A stretch of DNA of 64,000 nt from Candidatus Omnitrophota bacterium (GTDB lineage Bacteria; Omnitrophota; Gorgyraeia; Zapsychrales; Fredricksoniimonadaceae), in contig JAUSEK010000023.1 in assembly GCA_030650275.1 (NCBI GenBank), positions 34,189-98,188 of the forward strand. The letters are read 5' to 3'. Both the position numbers and the translations under genes were made by a program. Below, piece by piece: positions 24,846 through 52,480 of the stretch; the stretch's first letter is position 1, and each line of letters opens with the position of its first letter. The notes below the pieces were generated by a model, which made no database searches, was not told the DNA's origin, and saw nothing but the letters and a program-made list of their open reading frames with translations.

Positions 24846-24863
24846 CCGGGAAACGTTTCCCGG
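24846..24863 (+). promoter_or_regulatory. perfect 18-bp palindrome CCGGGAAACGTTTCCCGG (LacI/PurR-type operator-like, central AAACGTTT)
   Basis: Read directly; lies between AT-rich promoter region and ATG 24919. Confidence 0.45.
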
Positions 24864-24870
24864 CCCAAAG

Positions 24871-24900
24871 GATGTCATTCCCGCGTAGGCGGGAATCCAG
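24871..24900 (+). repeat. hairpin repeat family copy 1 (GATGTCATTCCCGC-GTAG-GCGGGAATCCAG)
   Basis: 8-bp stem ATTCCCGC/GCGGGAAT with conserved flanks; recurs at 25884 and 52266. Confidence 0.7.
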
Positions 24901-24918
24901 AACATAGAGATTAAATCA

Positions 24919-27900
24919 ATGTTTAAAAAATCCCTGAGCATTGCCCTCATTGTTGCTTTTTTCCTGACCTCCCTGGGGCCTATTCCCAAAGCTCATGCCG
25001 ACGTCCTTAATCTTCCCATCCCCGGCACCATGGTCAACTTAAGTCCTGCCTATGAGCCGGTGATGATCAAGGGCTTGACCGTCCACAAAGACAATCCCTT
25101 TTTGTTTGACTTTATCGTGGATGTGGGTGATTCAGGATTGTCCGTAGGGAACGCAGATCTGCGTTCCCTACAAGATGAATCAACCAAATTAATCAAATAT
25201 TTCCTTGCTTCTTTAGCCATTCCTGAAAAAGACCTTTGGGTCAACTTATCTCCATATGAGAAAGACCGCACCATCCCCGAAGAACTCTCCAAGACCGACA
25301 TGGGCCGTGACCTATTAGCCCAGGACTATATCCTCAAACAGATCACCGCCTCACTCATTTATCCTGAAAAGGCCTTAGGAAAAACATTCTGGGACAAGGT
25401 CTATACCAAAGCCCAACAACTCTACGGCACCACAGAAGTTCCCGTCAACACCTTCAACAAGGTCTGGATCATGGCAGACAAGGCAGAGGTGTTTGAACGC
25501 AACAACACCGCATTCGTTACCGACAGCCATCTTAAAGTAATGTTGGAAGAGGATTACCTGGCCCTTGAGCATCAAGGGCGGGTCCTGCAAAGCCACGATG
25601 GAACCCGGCCTGCTCACCAGCTCGCAGGCGCGCTAAGCGGTCCGGCTTATTCGCCGGACCAGCGCCCCGCACCACGCATGGATGCCCACACTCTGGCAAG
25701 CGACATCGTGCGTCAAATAATCCTCCCCGAACTAGAAAAAGAAGTCAACACCGGCAAGAACTTCGCTAATCTTCGTCAAATATTCAACTCCCTCATCCTT
25801 GCCTCCTGGTACAAGAAAAACCTCAAAGAAGCCCTCCTTAACCAGGTTTATTCCAATCAATCAAAGGTCAAAGGCATAGAAAGGGATGTCATTCCCGCGA
25901 AAGCGGGAATCCAATCCAAGGACGATGTGGAAGCCATCTACAACCAGTACCTTGCCGCCTACAAGAAGGGCGTGTTCAATTACATCAAAGAGGACATAGA
26001 CAAAGCCAAAGGCACGACGATACCGAGGAAGTATTTTTCGGGTGGGATGCAGATAGCTCCGCATGATGTGGCCATGACAACCGATCCGCAGAAACTGGCC
26101 AACGCCTTGCCAAAAGACAGGGCCCTGGTGTCTTTTCAAACAGGGATGATGGACCATGTTGTGGCTGTGACGCCGACACCAGACCGGGCGATGATAAACG
26201 AGATGCCGGAGAAGTTACGGGGAATATTTTTTTTCACGGACAAGGGGGCGGTCTTAAGATTGCCCCATTGGGAAAGGTTCGTCAGGGATGTTCCTGTCAA
26301 AGAAATTGATGAAATCATTGATTTTTTGGCCCCCATAATGAGGGAAAATGATTCTTACGCTTCCATAATGAGGAAAAGGCTCTCATCATCGGTGGAAGAA
26401 AGACCCAAAAGACCTTCCGGATCTCAGGAGGCTACTATTAAGAGAGTCATACTTTTATTGGCTGCGCAAGGATATTACTTCCCTGTTGGGAGCGAAAACA
26501 GTAAAGAGCCTTTTTCTGTTATGGAGATAACTTTCGACTCCGGGGCACGTAACTATTATTTGACGCTTAATGATGCGGACGGAAAACCCAGGGAAGATTT
26601 AACAGCGCAGGAGAGGTCAAGATTGATAGGGAATGTACGAACCGCGTTAAGGCTCTTTAAAAGAGATCTTGGTGAAGCAACGTCGCTTCAGGGTAAGGAA
26701 GCGTCACGCCGATCCGATGCCCCGGACCGGGCGATGACGGCGAGGCCGGCCGCATTGGTTCAGATACCGGTAGAAATACAATTATGGATCAATGTATCGG
26801 CTGGCAGCGCCAGGCCTGAAAAATGGATTCCATCGGAAACGGTTGTGGCGGAAATGACCGACATGATTGAAGGCGTTTCACCCCAAAGGTCCGAATCAGG
26901 AAGGATCCGTGCCTGGGTGGACCGTACAAAAGAAAAACTCAGTCAAGAAAAACGCGATCCATTAATAGGGTTGAGAGAAGCGATTTCCATGACTGGATCT
27001 TCGCCGGACCAGCCCATATCCAGCAAATTGAGATCCACGGTCAAAAGACGAGTTTTTCTTCATGTCTCGTCCATTCCCGGGGATGAGCGGACTTCGCCTG
27101 AAACCGTTATTGCCGTCATCAATGAGATGATCAGCAAACAGGTTCCTCTTATGGATGAAACGTCAGATTCGATTCGGCAGTGGGTGAGGTCGCAACAACA
27201 AAGATATCCCGGTGATCAAGAAGAACAACTTGTGCAATTGCGGGAAGGTATTACCCGTGCTGTCGCAGCCGCCGCCCCGGACCGGGCGATGGTGGGCAAG
27301 CCACGGACATTGGATGGAATGATGGATCTTGAAGTTGCACGCATGGTGGTACGAATCAAGCGGTCTATGGAGCTCGTAGAAAGAACAATGGAGAGCGCAG
27401 GCAGGATTGTGCGGTGGTATTCCACAAATAAAAGCGGGTTGACCCCGCAAAGCATAGGAAGCCTTCAGGAGGCGCACACAATATTAGAGTATTATTTGGC
27501 TATATGGAAAATAGATTTAGAAAAATTGGAAACTGTTTTTACGGGTTCTTCCCCGGAAGATTATCAGACCATTGCACCGGCCCTACGCGCCGATATCCGG
27601 CAGGCGAGATCATTAATAGAGAGAATAGCATCCTTACTTCCCAGAGAAAGCGCTGTAGCACCGGACCAGGCGATGATGGGACCGAACCAGCCCAGGTCGC
27701 AGAGCGAAGCCTTGAACATGGCCCTTCAAATCCTGGATCATATTACTGGCACGGATTATCAAAATGCCAAGAGGATTCTTTTTGAAAAGATCCTTGAATT
27801 AAAATTTGGGGCGTTCGGTGAGGCAGTGGTTATCAAGGACCCGCAGCACATCCTTCCTTTATTTGAACTGACCAGAATAGATCCGCCCAGGGCCGAGATC

Positions 27901-28359
27901 ATGGAGGGGCTGGCGGACCTGATCAGTGATGGCATCCTTGATCCCGAGGCTGTGCGTGACATTGTGACCATGGAGGATATCAGGCACTACCGGCGGATAA
28001 ACGCCATGCAAATAGAAACAATAGGGGCAGGGTCACCGGCGGGAGATCTTATACATGCGTTGGAGATATTTGTCGGCGTGGTCACAGATGACAGCGTGTC
28101 CGGCGCCAAAGGCCCGGACCAGGCGATGGCGGCCAAGGGTGGTATTGACCTGAACGCCGGAAACATGAAGTGGAGCGTCCGTAAGGATGGGAGCGGTGTT
28201 GAGATGAAGGTTGACCCGGCCCTGATCGAGCGCATCAAACGCGAAGGCATTGACAGTTTGACGCCGGTGATCTTTCGCGTCACGCCGGTGGTGAGTATTT
28301 GGCCTTTGGTTGGTTTAGATCCGCCCAAAAAGGAAGAAGAGCGTTTGGTCGGGGTGTAA
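24919..28359 (+). CDS. 1146-aa secreted protein with seven reiterated [AP]PD[RQ]AM motifs; no recognised catalytic domain
   Basis: Signal peptide then long ORF with strong coding periodicity; repeated DNA core CCGGACCGGGCGATG / CCGGACCAGGCGATG at 25641, 26175, 26716, 27001, 27285, 27661, 28117. Confidence 0.6.
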   Translation: MFKKSLSIALIVAFFLTSLGPIPKAHADVLNLPIPGTMVNLSPAYEPVMIKGLTVHKDNPFLFDFIVDVGDSGLSVGNADLRSLQDESTKLIKYFLASLAIPEKDLWVNLSPYEKDRTIPEELSKTDMGRDLLAQDYILKQITASLIYPEKALGKTFWDKVYTKAQQLYGTTEVPVNTFNKVWIMADKAEVFERNNTAFVTDSHLKVMLEEDYLALEHQGRVLQSHDGTRPAHQLAGALSGPAYSPDQRPAPRMDAHTLASDIVRQIILPELEKEVNTGKNFANLRQIFNSLILASWYKKNLKEALLNQVYSNQSKVKGIERDVIPAKAGIQSKDDVEAIYNQYLAAYKKGVFNYIKEDIDKAKGTTIPRKYFSGGMQIAPHDVAMTTDPQKLANALPKDRALVSFQTGMMDHVVAVTPTPDRAMINEMPEKLRGIFFFTDKGAVLRLPHWERFVRDVPVKEIDEIIDFLAPIMRENDSYASIMRKRLSSSVEERPKRPSGSQEATIKRVILLLAAQGYYFPVGSENSKEPFSVMEITFDSGARNYYLTLNDADGKPREDLTAQERSRLIGNVRTALRLFKRDLGEATSLQGKEASRRSDAPDRAMTARPAALVQIPVEIQLWINVSAGSARPEKWIPSETVVAEMTDMIEGVSPQRSESGRIRAWVDRTKEKLSQEKRDPLIGLREAISMTGSSPDQPISSKLRSTVKRRVFLHVSSIPGDERTSPETVIAVINEMISKQVPLMDETSDSIRQWVRSQQQRYPGDQEEQLVQLREGITRAVAAAAPDRAMVGKPRTLDGMMDLEVARMVVRIKRSMELVERTMESAGRIVRWYSTNKSGLTPQSIGSLQEAHTILEYYLAIWKIDLEKLETVFTGSSPEDYQTIAPALRADIRQARSLIERIASLLPRESAVAPDQAMMGPNQPRSQSEALNMALQILDHITGTDYQNAKRILFEKILELKFGAFGEAVVIKDPQHILPLFELTRIDPPRAEIMEGLADLISDGILDPEAVRDIVTMEDIRHYRRINAMQIETIGAGSPAGDLIHALEIFVGVVTDDSVSGAKGPDQAMAAKGGIDLNAGNMKWSVRKDGSGVEMKVDPALIERIKREGIDSLTPVIFRVTPVVSIWPLVGLDPPKKEEERLVGV
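25884..25913 (+). repeat. hairpin repeat family copy 2, in-frame inside the 1146-aa gene (encodes ...RDVIPAKAGIQ...)
   Basis: GGATGTCATTCCCGC-GAAA-GCGGGAATCCA, near-identical to copy 1 except loop. Confidence 0.7.
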
Positions 28360-31289: not shown

Positions 31290-32300
31290 ATGAACACTCC
31301 AAAAAAGATCAGCATTGTGGACGTGGCCCGCCGCGCGAAGGTTTCCATCACCACGGTTTCGCGCGTCCTGAATAAATTTCCCACCGTCAACAAAGACATC
31401 GCCGCGCGCGTCCAGGAAGCCATCGGTTTCCTGAAATTCAAACCGAATCCGACGGCCCAGCGTTTGGCCAAGGGCGGGGCCAACACCGCGGTGGGGTTTG
31501 TCATCCCGGGATTTCCCGGCATTTTCCATTCCTTTTACGCGGTGGAACTCATGCGCGGCATCGGCCACGGCTGTGAGACCCTGCGCCTCGACCTCATCTT
31601 TCACATCACCGACGGACACAATCCCTTAAAATCCAATTATGCCGGCGGGCTTATTTTCGCCGACATCATCGAGAACCGTTCCCAGGTCGAGGAGGCCCTC
31701 TCCCAGGGGGTCCCGTGCCTGGTCATCAATCACATGGTCAAGGACCTGGAGGTCAGTTACATCGCGGTGGACAACGTCAAGGGCGGGGCCATGGCCGCGG
31801 AATACCTTATCAATCTGGGACATAAGCGCATCGCGACCGTGACGGGCAATATCCAGACCCAGGCGGGCATTGACCGTTTGGAGGGTTTCCAGAAGGCCCT
31901 GATGAAAAAAGACATCGCGCTTGATCCGAAATATGTTTTTAAAGGCGATTATTCCCGCCGCTCGGCCCGCACGGCCGGCGAACGTTTTTTTGCCCTGGAT
32001 GATCCTCCCACGGCCGTTTTCGCCGCCAGCGACGATATGGCCCTTGAGATCATCTCCGTGGCCATGGAACACGGCATCAAGGTCCCCGAAGACATTTCCG
32101 TCGTCGGTTTTGATGACAACCCCGCGGGTCTTTTCGGCCCGGTTTCGCTGACGACCATCAAACAGCCGCTGTTTGCCATGGGGGAAGAAGCGGTTAAAGT
32201 CCTCTACGACATCATGCAGGGCAGGCAGGAAGGCCTTGTCCGCAAGGTCCTGATCCCCGAACTCATCGTGCGCGAATCCTGCGGCGCCCCCTCGTCATAA
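31290..32300 (+). CDS. LacI-family transcriptional regulator
   Basis: N-terminal HTH VSITTVSRVLN; periplasmic-binding-like effector domain. Confidence 0.8.
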   Translation: MNTPKKISIVDVARRAKVSITTVSRVLNKFPTVNKDIAARVQEAIGFLKFKPNPTAQRLAKGGANTAVGFVIPGFPGIFHSFYAVELMRGIGHGCETLRLDLIFHITDGHNPLKSNYAGGLIFADIIENRSQVEEALSQGVPCLVINHMVKDLEVSYIAVDNVKGGAMAAEYLINLGHKRIATVTGNIQTQAGIDRLEGFQKALMKKDIALDPKYVFKGDYSRRSARTAGERFFALDDPPTAVFAASDDMALEIISVAMEHGIKVPEDISVVGFDDNPAGLFGPVSLTTIKQPLFAMGEEAVKVLYDIMQGRQEGLVRKVLIPELIVRESCGAPSS

Positions 32301-36666: not shown

Positions 36667-37467
36667 ATGATACCTGAAAATACATCAAAGACCTTAGGCC
36701 CGATCGAGACCAATATCGTCGCCCGCTTAACATACGAGAAAAAGTTGATCGTCACTGTAGAGGATCTCGATCAATTATTTAAACTCGCCCCAGAGGATAG
36801 AAAACAGGTTGTTTTCAGGCTCAAAAGGAAAAAAATACTGGACCCTATAAAGCGCGGCGTCTATGCCTTTTCCCCGCTTGAAGCCGGCCCGGAAGGGACA
36901 GGGATCGATGAACTGCTCATTCCTCCGCTTTTTTTCCCAAAAAAGAATTACTACGTCGGTTACTCAACCATGTTTAATTACTACGGTTTTTCGGAACAAC
37001 TTTTTCAGACCGTATATGTTCTTAATACAACCTTACGTATGGAAAGGATCATTTGCGGTATTTCCTATAAGTTCATAAGAATTCCGGAAAGCCGCATCTA
37101 TGGCCGGGAAATCATTAAAGTGAAAAATACGGATGCCCTCGTCAGCTCTAAAGAGAGGACGCTCATCGACCTTCTTTATTTTAACAAGCCGGTCGGCGGC
37201 ATTAATAACGCCGTCCAGATCTTCAAACAAGTTGTTGAAGAAAAGAAATGTGATATCAAGAAGCTCATTCAATACGCCGCACGTTTTCCAAATATCACGA
37301 CCAGAAAACGCGTCGGCCTGATCCTTGATGATTTAGGCATTACCGAAACCACCCTTAGCCCGCTTATCAAAAGCGTGGCAAAAACCGCGCTGAGTTCGCT
37401 GACTGGATCGCGCAAAGGAACGCTCAACAAAAAATGGAGAGTCATTGTTAATGATCCACAAAAATAA
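36667..37467 (+). CDS. abiEi: AbiEi-family antitoxin / transcriptional regulator (type IV TA, abortive infection)
   Basis: AbiEi_4-like architecture; overlaps downstream AbiEii gene by 23 nt; AT-rich context. Confidence 0.6.
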   Translation: MIPENTSKTLGPIETNIVARLTYEKKLIVTVEDLDQLFKLAPEDRKQVVFRLKRKKILDPIKRGVYAFSPLEAGPEGTGIDELLIPPLFFPKKNYYVGYSTMFNYYGFSEQLFQTVYVLNTTLRMERIICGISYKFIRIPESRIYGREIIKVKNTDALVSSKERTLIDLLYFNKPVGGINNAVQIFKQVVEEKKCDIKKLIQYAARFPNITTRKRVGLILDDLGITETTLSPLIKSVAKTALSSLTGSRKGTLNKKWRVIVNDPQK

Positions 37468-38329
37468 AGAAGAATTTATAAAAACCCTTGAAAGAGCGTC
37501 CAGGAAGAAAGAGTTTTTATTGCCTCTATTGGAAAAAGATTACTATTTAACGTTGGTCCTTTCCCGGGTGCACGAGCTTTCAGAAGACCTCATTTTTAAA
37601 GGAGGGACATGCTTAAATAAGATTTATTACGCATATTATCGTTTGAGCGAAGATCTTGATTTTAGTATGAAGCTCCCACAGTACGAAGCGACGCGCGGCG
37701 AAAGACGCAAGTGTATCCAGTCGGTGAAGGACCATATAAAGAAGTTTGTGGAGCCATTAGATATAAAGATCGATGGATCGGACAATCCTGGGCGCAACGA
37801 ATCCAAGCAGTATGTATATTATTTTGTTTATCAATCAGCTCTACGCCAGGTCGAAGCAAAAATTAAATTTGAGATCGGCCTTAGGTATAATCCGATCCAC
37901 GCGACAGAGAAACGCCAAGTCCAACATAATTTTTTGCATCCCTTTACCGGAGAACCGTTATTTGATGGAGGCAAGGTCAATTGTTTGTCCTTAAAAGAGA
38001 TCGTGAGTGAAAAGCTCCGGGCCGCGGCCTTAAGGAAGACCATCGCGCCGCGCGATTTCTATGACCTCGATTTTATTTTGCGTAATCAATTCAACCTTGC
38101 GGACCAGGAAGTGATAGATCTTTTTGAGAAAAAGATTAAGGAAGATGGCGGAGATCCGGATTTAGCAAAGTATCGCACCAATCTCGGGCGATCCAATGAT
38201 GAAATCAAGGACATGCGTTCACGGATTGAAAATGAATTATTTGACGTATTAACGCCGGGCGAACGTGAGCATTTTGATCTCGACAAGGCGCTGATGAGGA
38301 TAAATGAGGCTTTAAAAGGGCTGAAATAA
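37445..38329 (+). CDS. abiEii: AbiEii/AbiGii-family nucleotidyltransferase toxin (DUF1814)
   Basis: Motif GGTCLNKIYYAYYRLSEDLDF (GGTxL...R.SxDxDF nucleotidyltransferase signature). Confidence 0.7.
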   Translation: MLMIHKNKEEFIKTLERASRKKEFLLPLLEKDYYLTLVLSRVHELSEDLIFKGGTCLNKIYYAYYRLSEDLDFSMKLPQYEATRGERRKCIQSVKDHIKKFVEPLDIKIDGSDNPGRNESKQYVYYFVYQSALRQVEAKIKFEIGLRYNPIHATEKRQVQHNFLHPFTGEPLFDGGKVNCLSLKEIVSEKLRAAALRKTIAPRDFYDLDFILRNQFNLADQEVIDLFEKKIKEDGGDPDLAKYRTNLGRSNDEIKDMRSRIENELFDVLTPGEREHFDLDKALMRINEALKGLK

Positions 38330-51776: not shown

Positions 51777-52190
51777 ATGCATCATACAAAAGATAAAGCA
51801 GATATAGGTTTTTGTAAGGTCATTACGGATCTTACGATGAAGGGGTATGTGCCATGCATACCTTTTTCAGAACATCAAGCGTTTGATCTTGTTGTGGTTG
51901 GGCGGGACGGCACCACTTTCAGGATCCAGATTAAATACTCAACATTAAGGAAGAATGGGTCTGTGGATGTCCGGTATAGGAGAAACTGGGCGGATAAGCA
52001 CGGCGTACACACCAGAATTTATTCAAAAGACGAATTCGATTATTACGCGATTTATTGTCCAGAGAAAGATGCAGTGCTTTATGTCCGTAATACTCCGGAT
52101 TGCCCGAAGTCGATCCGTTTTGATAAGCCAGCCAACAATCAGATGCGGCATATTAAATGGGCAAATGACTATTTGAAAATCAAGAAATGA
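51777..52190 (+). CDS. PD-(D/E)xK nuclease-fold protein, 16 nt downstream of the intron-containing tRNA (candidate free-standing homing-endonuclease-like gene)
   Basis: Motif order E(SEHQ)...D(FDLVVVGRDG)...IQIK consistent with PD-(D/E)xK; AT-rich, low-GC context. Confidence 0.4.
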   Translation: MHHTKDKADIGFCKVITDLTMKGYVPCIPFSEHQAFDLVVVGRDGTTFRIQIKYSTLRKNGSVDVRYRRNWADKHGVHTRIYSKDEFDYYAIYCPEKDAVLYVRNTPDCPKSIRFDKPANNQMRHIKWANDYLKIKK

Positions 52191-52265
52191 TATCAGTTGG
52201 GCGGCGTTATTCTTGTTGAGTGTTTTTGGGTTTTTTGGTAATGTATTGCCCTTTTCAGTACTGTT

Positions 52266-52297
52266 GTCATTCCCGAATGTTTCTGTCGGGAATCCAG
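52266..52297 (+). repeat. hairpin repeat family copy 3 (GTCATTCCCGA-ATGTTTCTG-TCGGGAATCCAG)
   Basis: Same conserved flanks as 24871 and 25884 copies with a different loop. Confidence 0.6.
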
Positions 52298-52402
52298 ACA
52301 CGGCTTTATCGTACAATGGTGGGTGCCCCGCATGTCTGGAATAAACATTATGGAATGCGGGACGACCAACCACTTTTTCTGGGACAAAAAAACGTAGTAA
52401 GT

Positions 52403-52480
52403 GGTGGGTGTAGCTCAGTTGGTTAGAGCGGAAGATTGTGGATCTTCAGGTCGCGGGTTCAAATCCCGTCACTCACCCCA
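52403..52480 (+). tRNA. tRNA-His (anticodon GUG), with encoded G-1 and 3' CCA
   Basis: Manual fold: G-1, acceptor GTGGGTG/CACTCAC (one G:U), D stem GCTC/GAGC, anticodon stem GAAGA/TCTTC, loop UUGUGGA, discriminator C73. Confidence 0.85.

Follow-up and report, generated by a model that had tools for sequence, protein, structure and literature searches.

The closest described relatives of the element studied here come from Neisseria. In N. meningitidis, the Neisseria Transformation Sequence (NTS), a 28-nt motif with the consensus CGTCATTCCCGCGMAVGCGGGAATCYRG, is bound and cut by SsnA, a 94-aa single-domain GIY-YIG nuclease of the CDD family cd10448 (PMC11893778; Nat Commun 2025). According to that study, cleavage is strand-specific, takes place a few nt 5' of the hairpin and requires single-stranded DNA (ssDNA), RNA not being a substrate in the assays. 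The critical bases are the three upstream of the palindrome, GTC, for cleavage, and the C right after it, for binding. The ssn gene typically has the motif on both sides, as NTS(+)–ssn–NTS(-), and the system reduces the integration of NTS-bearing transforming DNA in N. meningitidis. Strand-specific binding and cleavage of ssDNA are known only for proteins of N. meningitidis, N. elongata, N. wadsworthii and Wolbachia pipientis, and Ssn homologues together with Ssn-related motifs (SRMs) were found across phyla, with Rickettsia among the SRM-rich genomes. The NTS was searched with its consensus, allowing 1 mismatch, and the SRM with the pattern HGTCWYN(0-2)YYVSBRHN(0-5)WNVSBRGN(0-2)RNCYNB (PMC11893778). 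We compared with this system a family of three small hairpins in a 64,000-nt stretch of a Candidatus Omnitrophota genome (contig JAUSEK010000023.1, positions 34,189 to 98,188, assembly GCA_030650275.1; hereafter the window), one of which is inserted in frame in a coding sequence. The hairpins had been noticed in a preliminary description made from the sequence alone.

All three copies are present, and their positions had been given correctly to within a few bases (Table 1). They lie on the same strand and share the form (T)GTCATTCCCG…CGGGAATCCA(G/A). The pattern TCATTCCCG-N3-16-CGGGAAT has 3 matches in the window versus 0.00 expected and none in any of 100 dinucleotide-preserving shuffles, which bears out the earlier claim of a genuine repeat family; no additional copies or half-sites stand out in the 64 kb. 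The dRS3 pattern of Neisseria, ATTCCC-N8-GGGAAT, is found exactly in copies 1 and 2, the spacer in copy 3 being N13, and both of these copies are 2 mismatches away from the 28-nt NTS consensus. The critical GTC, the 8-bp stem and the following C are kept in 3/3 copies, and copy 1 (alone of the three) is an exact match to the published SRM pattern. Judged by sequence, the window motif is the dRS3/NTS hairpin of Neisseria and an SRM. A Neisseria origin of the DNA itself, suggested by the motif, was considered and rejected, given that the 64 kb contain one 10-mer of the DNA uptake sequence (DUS) and encode Omnitrophota proteins.

Table 1. Positions of the hairpin copies and of other features in the window.
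Feature	Position	Strand	Description
Hairpin copy 1	24873-24900	+	T24873; GTC 24874-24876; stem ATTCCCGC 24877-24884; loop GTAG; stem GCGGGAAT 24889-24896; CCAG
Hairpin copy 2	25887-25914	+	T25887; GTC 25888-25890; stem ATTCCCGC 25891-25898; loop GAAA; stem GCGGGAAT 25903-25910; CCAA
Hairpin copy 3 (long-loop variant)	52265-52297	+	T52265; GTC 52266-52268; stem ATTCCCGA 52269-52276; 9-nt loop ATGTTTCTG (atgtttctg); stem TCGGGAAT 52286-52293; CCAG
Tentative degenerate inverted partner of copy 3	52320-52372	-	Reads GTCGT-CCCGCAT…ATGCGGG on the minus strand
Inverted repeat I1 (candidate partner of copy 3)	52320-52333 / 52355-52368		79% complementary
Host gene	24919-28359	+	1146-aa signal-peptide protein; copy 2 inside, copy 1 just upstream
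PD-(D/E)XK endonuclease gene	51777-52190		PF11645; upstream of copy 3
tRNA-His	52404-52480		107 nt downstream of copy 3
Palindrome, 18 bp	24846-24863		Perfect; 10 nt upstream of copy 1
PD(R/Q)AM segments of the host protein	26179-26193, 26722-26736, 27277-27291, 27661-27675, 28114-28128		aa 421, 602, 787, 915, 1066
LacI-family regulator	31290-32300
AbiEi/AbiEii pair	36667-38329		Local low-GC patch, GC 0.45

Copy 1 lies between genes, its end 19 nt upstream of the start codon (ATG at 24919) of the 1146-aa open reading frame (ORF). Within copy 2 of the same ORF, nt 25888-25914 form codons 324-332 (VIPAKAGIQ), all of them sense codons, and copy 3 lies in an AT-rich gap between the PD-(D/E)XK gene and tRNA-His. 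The 3' flanks of copies 1, 2 and 3 read CCAGAAC, CCAATCC and CCAGACA. The palindrome upstream of copy 1 (CCGGGAAACGTTTCCCGG) was tried as a fourth family member and rejected, being single-copy in the window and of other sequence; its core, AAACGTTT, resembles operators of the LacI/GalR family, and a LacI-family regulator is encoded in the window.

The motif is widespread. A scan of viral contigs with GTCATTCCCG-N3-12-CGGGAATCC gave at least 120 loci, and a scan of one genome per species with the window's own variant, TGTCATTCCCG-N3-12-CGGGAATCCA, also gave at least 120, so that the possibility, allowed for in the preliminary description, that only three copies exist does not hold. The viral and genome matches listed were taken together as 240 loci selected by the hairpin pattern alone (L001-L240). 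The genome matches listed belong to metagenome-assembled genomes (MAGs) labelled as more than 20 lineages, including Nitrospirota, Chloroflexota, Planctomycetota, Patescibacteria, Bacteroidota, Desulfobacterota and a Rickettsia endosymbiont; the same 21 specified bases were seen in Patescibacteria and also in a single MAG that carries the label Nanoarchaeota (L153). Four of the genome matches listed are Omnitrophota loci (L154, L175, L224 and L232), and Omnitrophota stretches outside the window hold 1-6 hairpin copies per 8-24 kb. In L154, a hairpin nearly identical to copy 3 was found, with the 3' flank AGACACG included.

The linkage of this hairpin to Ssn-type genes is observed directly, including in one Omnitrophota genome. 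Of the hairpin-selected loci, 11 out of 240 encode a cd10448-like GIY-YIG ORF, which directly adjoins a hairpin in at least seven of them; L108, L229 and L233 have the layout NTS(+)–ORF–NTS(-) with 310-329 nt between both hairpins. One of the 11, L175, comes from the Omnitrophota MAG nzgw330 and encodes a 97-aa protein with the Pfam GIY-YIG domain PF01541 (E 9e-17); the cd10448 class of such ORFs rests on resemblance, the domain assignment having been made with Pfam GIY-YIG. The hairpin just upstream of this gene, TGTCATCCCCGAATGTTTCTGTCGGGGATCCAGA, has the loop of copy 3 and differs from it by one compensatory pair (T-A to C-G). A sequence search of the PDB with the L175 protein gave just one distant UPF0213 GIY-YIG match.

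The reverse test started from 80 metagenome loci encoding relatives of the L175 Ssn with 62-76% identity. A same-strand GTC(A/T)(C/T)-hairpin was found within 150 nt upstream of the Ssn-like gene in 57/78 loci, an opposite-strand one within 150 nt downstream in 65/77, and both in 51. Elsewhere in the same loci, the background rate is 0.015 hairpins per 165 nt, which corresponds to an enrichment of ~50-fold at Ssn-like genes. Since nearly all of the Ssn-flanking hairpins start with TGTCATTCCCG, like the window copies, T at position 1 is normal in this Ssn subfamily; in the viral sample, where the search pattern leaves this position unbiased, C occurs in 84 and T in 73 of 168 copies. Several of the Ssn-flanking hairpins also have 9-nt loops of the copy 3 type. 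Because T-initial and 9-nt-loop hairpins flank Ssn genes as well, the published SRM and NTS patterns look too narrow, as opposed to the window copies being foreign.

Around the Ssn gene of L175 (6660-7640 of that locus), there are tight convergent doublets, repeated three times, in which an SRM variant, GTCATCCCCGA…, is followed ~13 nt on by an NTS in inverted orientation; on the downstream side of the gene, the NTS seems to be split by a ~95-nt insertion in its loop. Across sources, Ssn relatives are 62-80% identical, and many of them are on contigs shorter than 1 kb. The wide distribution of hairpin and Ssn, together with the short contigs, agrees with a multi-copy element that moves horizontally and causes assemblies to break.

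Each window copy has 8 perfect pairs, with predicted ssDNA folds of -8.5 to -10.5 kcal/mol and z from -3.2 to -4.5 (copy 1: -8.9 kcal/mol, z -4.45). An earlier covariation count made on hairpins with perfect stems was judged circular, and we used instead 77 Ssn-flanking hairpins anchored solely on the outer flanks GTCAT…ATCC, which avoids a choice of perfect stems. Among the 462 cells of the six inner pairs, 417 are unchanged and 45 differ from the consensus pair; in 27 of these, both sides changed and are still Watson-Crick, five are G-T and 13 are broken. This covariation, which is seen directly in the aligned hairpins, indicates that the stem is under selection.

Such a stem could also act as RNA, and the preliminary description had offered a regulatory hairpin of this kind, which might be a stabiliser, attenuator, terminator or translational regulator of the 1146-aa gene, or a processing signal near tRNA-His. 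The position of copy 1 would suit this explanation, as would that of an NTS 26 nt before the start codon of a homologous gene (L243); moreover, the coding copies of the host family are all on the sense strand, so that the hairpin would be present in the mRNA, and stem covariation does not separate pairing in DNA from pairing in RNA. However, the copy 1 hairpin overlaps neither the start codon nor a Shine-Dalgarno-like stretch; scans for Rfam families, terminators and sigma-70 promoters gave nothing at the hairpins, and no copy has a T-run or a terminator-like site, the intrinsic terminator being defined by a GC-rich stem with a T-run. The asymmetric GTC…C flanks are kept across many phyla, in intergenic and coding copies and on either strand relative to the genes, and they match the requirements of the nuclease, SsnA binding ssDNA and not RNA (PMC11893778). 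We therefore consider a role at the RNA level unlikely, and the earlier suggestion finds no support. The placement of copy 1 in a 5' untranslated region is presumptive, because no promoter was located.

The arrangement of the hairpins bears on another explanation, that they are elements of the repetitive extragenic palindrome (REP) or REPIN type, mobilised by a REP-associated tyrosine transposase (RAYT) of the IS200/IS605-like Y1 kind. Indeed, the same 21-mer, ATTCCCGCGCAGGCGGGAATC, was grouped as a Neisseria REPIN population tied to a Group 2 RAYT (bioRxiv 10.1101/2021.07.10.451892). Close hairpin pairs are often convergent doublets, as expected for REPINs: among pairs less than 120 nt apart in the hairpin-selected loci, 21 are convergent, 14 tandem and 0 divergent. 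These convergent pairs mirror the arms of the gene cassette and look like derivatives in the style of REPINs or of miniature inverted-repeat transposable elements. A degenerate sequence in inverted orientation (Table 1) may be the partner of copy 3, and the two would make a REPIN-like doublet of ~107 nt; the case for it is weak, as the candidate lacks GTCAT, has a 21-nt loop and could not be aligned to the partner hairpins of L175 or L154. Copies 1 and 2, on the other hand, are singlets. Moreover, phmmer searches with E. coli RayT and an IS200 TnpA sequence gave no match at E<0.01 in the window and 324 loci (the 240 hairpin-selected, four with Omnitrophota homologues of the host protein and the 80 Ssn loci), single-sequence queries by which very divergent RAYTs could be missed, while Ssn-like ORFs are present in 11 of the same 240 loci. 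As no RAYT was found, this reading is unsupported and appears quite unlikely.

The preliminary description had also taken the copy inside the ORF for an in-frame insertion, and it had named the ancestral presence of VIPAKAGIQ in orthologues as an observation that would speak against it. The host protein is a 100% match to Q7K71_06145 of a Candidatus Omnitrophota bacterium and has 4370 homologues. In an alignment of 70 homologues, most read KGIDLNDPTVKQQIY (…KGIDLNDPTVKQQIYEQYL…) and the window protein reads KGIERD-VIPAKAGIQ-SKDDVEAIY (…SKDDVEAIYNQYL…), exactly nine residues more. The alignment thus bears out the in-frame insertion: copy 2 is an exact 9-codon (27-nt) insert and not ancestral sequence. 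Similar segments recur in the family: 13 of the 120 homologues examined carry 16 segments of the form VIPA(K/Q)AGI(Q/H), of which seven are in a loop 13-44 residues past LEEDY, eight past LLNQxY (the site used in the window protein) and one in the signal-peptide region. None of the segments in these 120 proteins is translated in another frame, though 5/6 frames of the hairpin are open. Four homologues were read at the DNA level: all of their segments are encoded on the sense strand by tGTCATTCCCGCG(A/C)A(A/G)GCGGGAATCCA, GTC forming one codon, and 24-27 of the 27 nt are identical to copy 2.

Comparison with the flanks points to the level at which the segment is conserved. Between copy 2 and two of these homologues (L241 and L242), the hairpin is 26-27/27 identical, third codon positions included, compared with 68-71% for the codon-aligned, strongly conserved 90-nt upstream flank and 47-53% for its third codon positions. 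Because the identity of the hairpin far exceeds that of the flank, it is the DNA that is constrained or has recently been copied, and the peptide is not the conserved thing. A chance similarity, or an ancestral coding sequence kept for its peptide, is refuted. VIPAKAGIQ is small, flexible and recurrent in the family, as such a peptide might be, but zero matches to the pattern are expected in the window, most homologues are without the segment, the synonymous positions of the hairpin are all kept and the same DNA is found between genes and in other reading frames of unrelated genomes.

In an AlphaFold 2 (AF2) model of residues 1-444 (mean pLDDT 66.7), both insertion hot spots are predicted to fall in coil with pLDDT ~50. 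The first (residues 225-255) separates helices 210-224 and 256-278; the second (residues 313-333), where the insert of copy 2 itself has a pLDDT below 50, separates helices 280-312 and 334-360. Shared descent probably accounts for some of the insertions, given that the window protein and the homologues P0018 and P0037 all go on …GIQS; other inserted homologues have quite different flanks. A check for target-site duplications, which the preliminary description had proposed, showed none that is visible or that recurs consistently among the copies. Copy 2 is followed by a repeat of ATCCA (GGGAATCCA-ATCCA), and since the L242 homologue has the same repeat, this is probably due to shared descent and not to duplication.

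Several further features of the host family can be described. It is very large and Omnitrophota-specific, with a signal peptide, a conserved N-terminal domain of ~420 aa, a highly variable middle and a conserved C-terminal block of ~70 aa; GGIDL occurs within the last 120 aa in 116/120 homologues, and there are several paralogues per contig. The middle of homologues includes whole Pfam domains of metabolic enzymes, namely of adenylate kinase, malate synthase, enolase, glutamate dehydrogenase, phosphoglycerate kinase, hexokinase and transaldolase. The 1146-aa protein itself has no match in Pfam or NCBIfam, and a fold search against the PDB with the AF2 N-terminal domain gave none with E<1. It contains PD(R/Q)AM five times, at apparent module junctions and, the last time, just before the GGIDLN block; this may be a processing or linker signal. 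In the homologous gene of L243 (10640-10705 and 10920-10975), each full NTS is preceded, at a distance of 9-10 nt, by a half-site, GTCATTCCC(A/G)C, and the translation, VIP(T/A)SST-VIPAKAGIH, suggests that the element was duplicated in part or that insertions are nested. In other family members (P0004-P0066), both hot-spot loops contain different stereotyped peptides, namely VIASEAKQS, VILSEAKDL…SLRDSS…PQNDT and SPVILS…, which at the protein level look like translations of further repeat families. In L001-L240, a crude ORF test places 38 of 334 hairpin copies (~11%) inside open frames of at least 200 aa; the stereotyped peptides of these copies (VIPAxAGIQ, HSRxGGNP, SFPRxRES, LDSRxRGND and WIPAxAGMT) are familiar from hypothetical proteins of MAGs.

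The surroundings of copy 3 recall a different possibility, namely an attachment or recombination site for a site-specific recombinase or an IS110-type transposase, with copy 3 as the border of an island at tRNA-His. In filamentous prophages of Neisseria, dRS3 is the target of a specific phage recombinase (cited in PMC11893778). Copy 3 is near tRNA-His, beyond which the GC falls to 0.44-0.48 for ~6 kb (to 58000), the first gene there encoding an AAA/DUF4143 ATPase, and this low-GC stretch could be an island that entered at the tRNA. However, there is no second copy on its far side, copies 1 and 2 flank nothing mobile and no integrase, recombinase or transposase domain was found by the Pfam scan, which took in 46 of the larger ORFs in the window; RAYT and GIY-YIG domains were likewise absent from these 46. 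An attachment site thus seems very unlikely.

Taking the evidence together, we favour, with a probability of roughly 70%, the explanation that the three hairpins are solo SRM copies of the NTS/dRS3 type, derived from and serving an Ssn-type system of GIY-YIG ssDNA nucleases. The element is a directional DNA hairpin, composed of YGTC, ATTCCCGN…NCGGGAAT and CCA. This Omnitrophota genome would have, or would once have had, an NTS(+)–ssn–NTS(-) cassette, from which the hairpin would have spread elsewhere, both singly and in pairs. Whenever the + strand is single-stranded, as the lagging-strand template or in incoming or repair DNA, the hairpins could extrude and become binding and cleavage sites for Ssn, influencing recombination. 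The GC skew suggests that the + strand, on which all three copies lie, is the lagging-strand template, an agreement that with n=3 carries no weight. The coding copy would persist because the common unit with a 4-nt loop is 27 nt, or nine codons, because 5/6 frames are open and because it landed in a length-variable loop between helices.

Several points weigh against this explanation. No Ssn gene was found in the 64-kb window, either as a match to a cd10448 consensus or to the Ssn-like ORFs of L108, L048 and L175, and among the best 120 of 7996 relatives of the Omnitrophota Ssn none is tagged Q7K71. The strict SRM pattern is failed by copy 2 at the last base and by copy 3 through its 9-nt loop, and at NTS position 1 copies 1 and 2 have T instead of C. 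The L175 ORF was placed in the Ssn clade by size, GIY-YIG domain and hairpin flanks. To our knowledge, nuclease activity alone has been shown for Ssn, and we know of no transposition or copying mechanism; for this reason, spread from a cassette is a conjecture. The transformation-modulating role comes from Neisseria alone (PMC11893778). An Ssn gene in this genome, the cutting of these copies and their mode of spread are thus what we infer, the cognate nuclease being presumed because the window is without an Ssn gene.

A more specific proposal, which we regard as doubtful, concerns the coding copies. In Omnitrophota, the 27-nt NTS might be an in-frame cassette that is placed or retained, always in sense orientation and read as VIPAKAGIQ, in two loops and in the leader of a huge family of secreted paralogues. 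It would act there as Ssn-cleavable punctuation that governs recombination or gene conversion, whether among the paralogues or with DNA from outside. If true, this would be a diversification-control system inside coding sequence of an uncultured phylum, parallel to the NTS clusters at variable surface-antigen genes of pathogenic Neisseria. In a broader version, NTS–ssn–NTS may be a pan-bacterial mobile element driven by a GIY-YIG nuclease, with the solo hairpins as its non-autonomous progeny.

Independently of this proposal, the comparison ties an Omnitrophota hairpin, and common junk peptides of MAGs (of the VIPAKAGIQ, SFPRKRES and DSRFRGND type), to the Ssn system characterized in 2025, and extends that system to Omnitrophota, to T-initial and long-loop variants missed by the published pattern and to coding sequence. 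The family itself is known and the phylum new to it; the recurrent insertions in a single frame and in loops of one secreted family, the 27-nt unit and the out-of-pattern variants may be new details. The three natural sites and the Ssn gene of L175 are substrates for asking whether the specificity and biology of Ssn hold beyond Neisseria. For annotation, such 27-nt in-frame inserts should be treated as repeat insertions and not as conserved protein motifs.

The remaining content of the window is ordinary for a chromosome. Its GC is ~0.55, the GC skew is mostly positive, and 46 of the 53 ORFs of at least 110 aa in a simple longest-ORF call are on the + strand. Among the genes are those for Era-like and MnmE GTPases, MnmG, QueC, sugar transport, glycosidases, the LacI-family regulator and AbiEi/AbiEii, a type IV toxin-antitoxin or abortive infection pair.

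The preliminary description had likened the repeats to Rickettsia palindromic elements (RPEs), Correia elements and REP elements, and the closest relative has turned out to be NTS/dRS3. Correia elements are likewise small Neisseria repeats with inverted ends and able to affect neighbouring genes; they differ in length and sequence, and their 26-28-bp terminal repeat, TATAGTGGATTAACAAAAATCAGGACAA, has 0 matches in the window at up to 3 mismatches. RPEs, too, are palindromic repeats that enter ORFs in frame without destroying them, and there is an overlap in hosts, since NTS doublets were found in the genome of a Rickettsia endosymbiont (L206). An RPE is roughly 100-150 bp long and the window unit 27 nt, so that length sets the two apart here. 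The REP/REPIN–RAYT systems of E. coli and Pseudomonas, claimed also for Neisseria, share with the present case short extragenic hairpins, often in inverted doublets, one small nuclease-type gene flanked by repeats and a presumed action on ssDNA; the linked gene here, however, encodes a GIY-YIG nuclease and not an HUH/Y1 transposase. To the dRS3 repeats and neisserial intergenic mosaic elements (NIMEs), the exact match of copies 1 and 2 is the link, whereas the window is not rich in DUS and has neither mosaics of RS elements between pairs nor a prophage junction. From NTS/SRM–SsnA, the window differs in its host, which is from Omnitrophota and not a proteobacterium, in the absence of an Ssn gene, in the T at position 1 (usual around this Ssn subfamily), in the 9-nt loop of copy 3 and in having one copy translated in frame, a situation for which the term "in-frame" is absent from the main text of PMC11893778. 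With this system, nonetheless, the window copies share the core GTCATTCCCGCG-NNN-GCGGGAATCC, the directionality and the critical bases, and its convergent NTS–ssn–NTS layout is reproduced in independent viral, genome and metagenome data.

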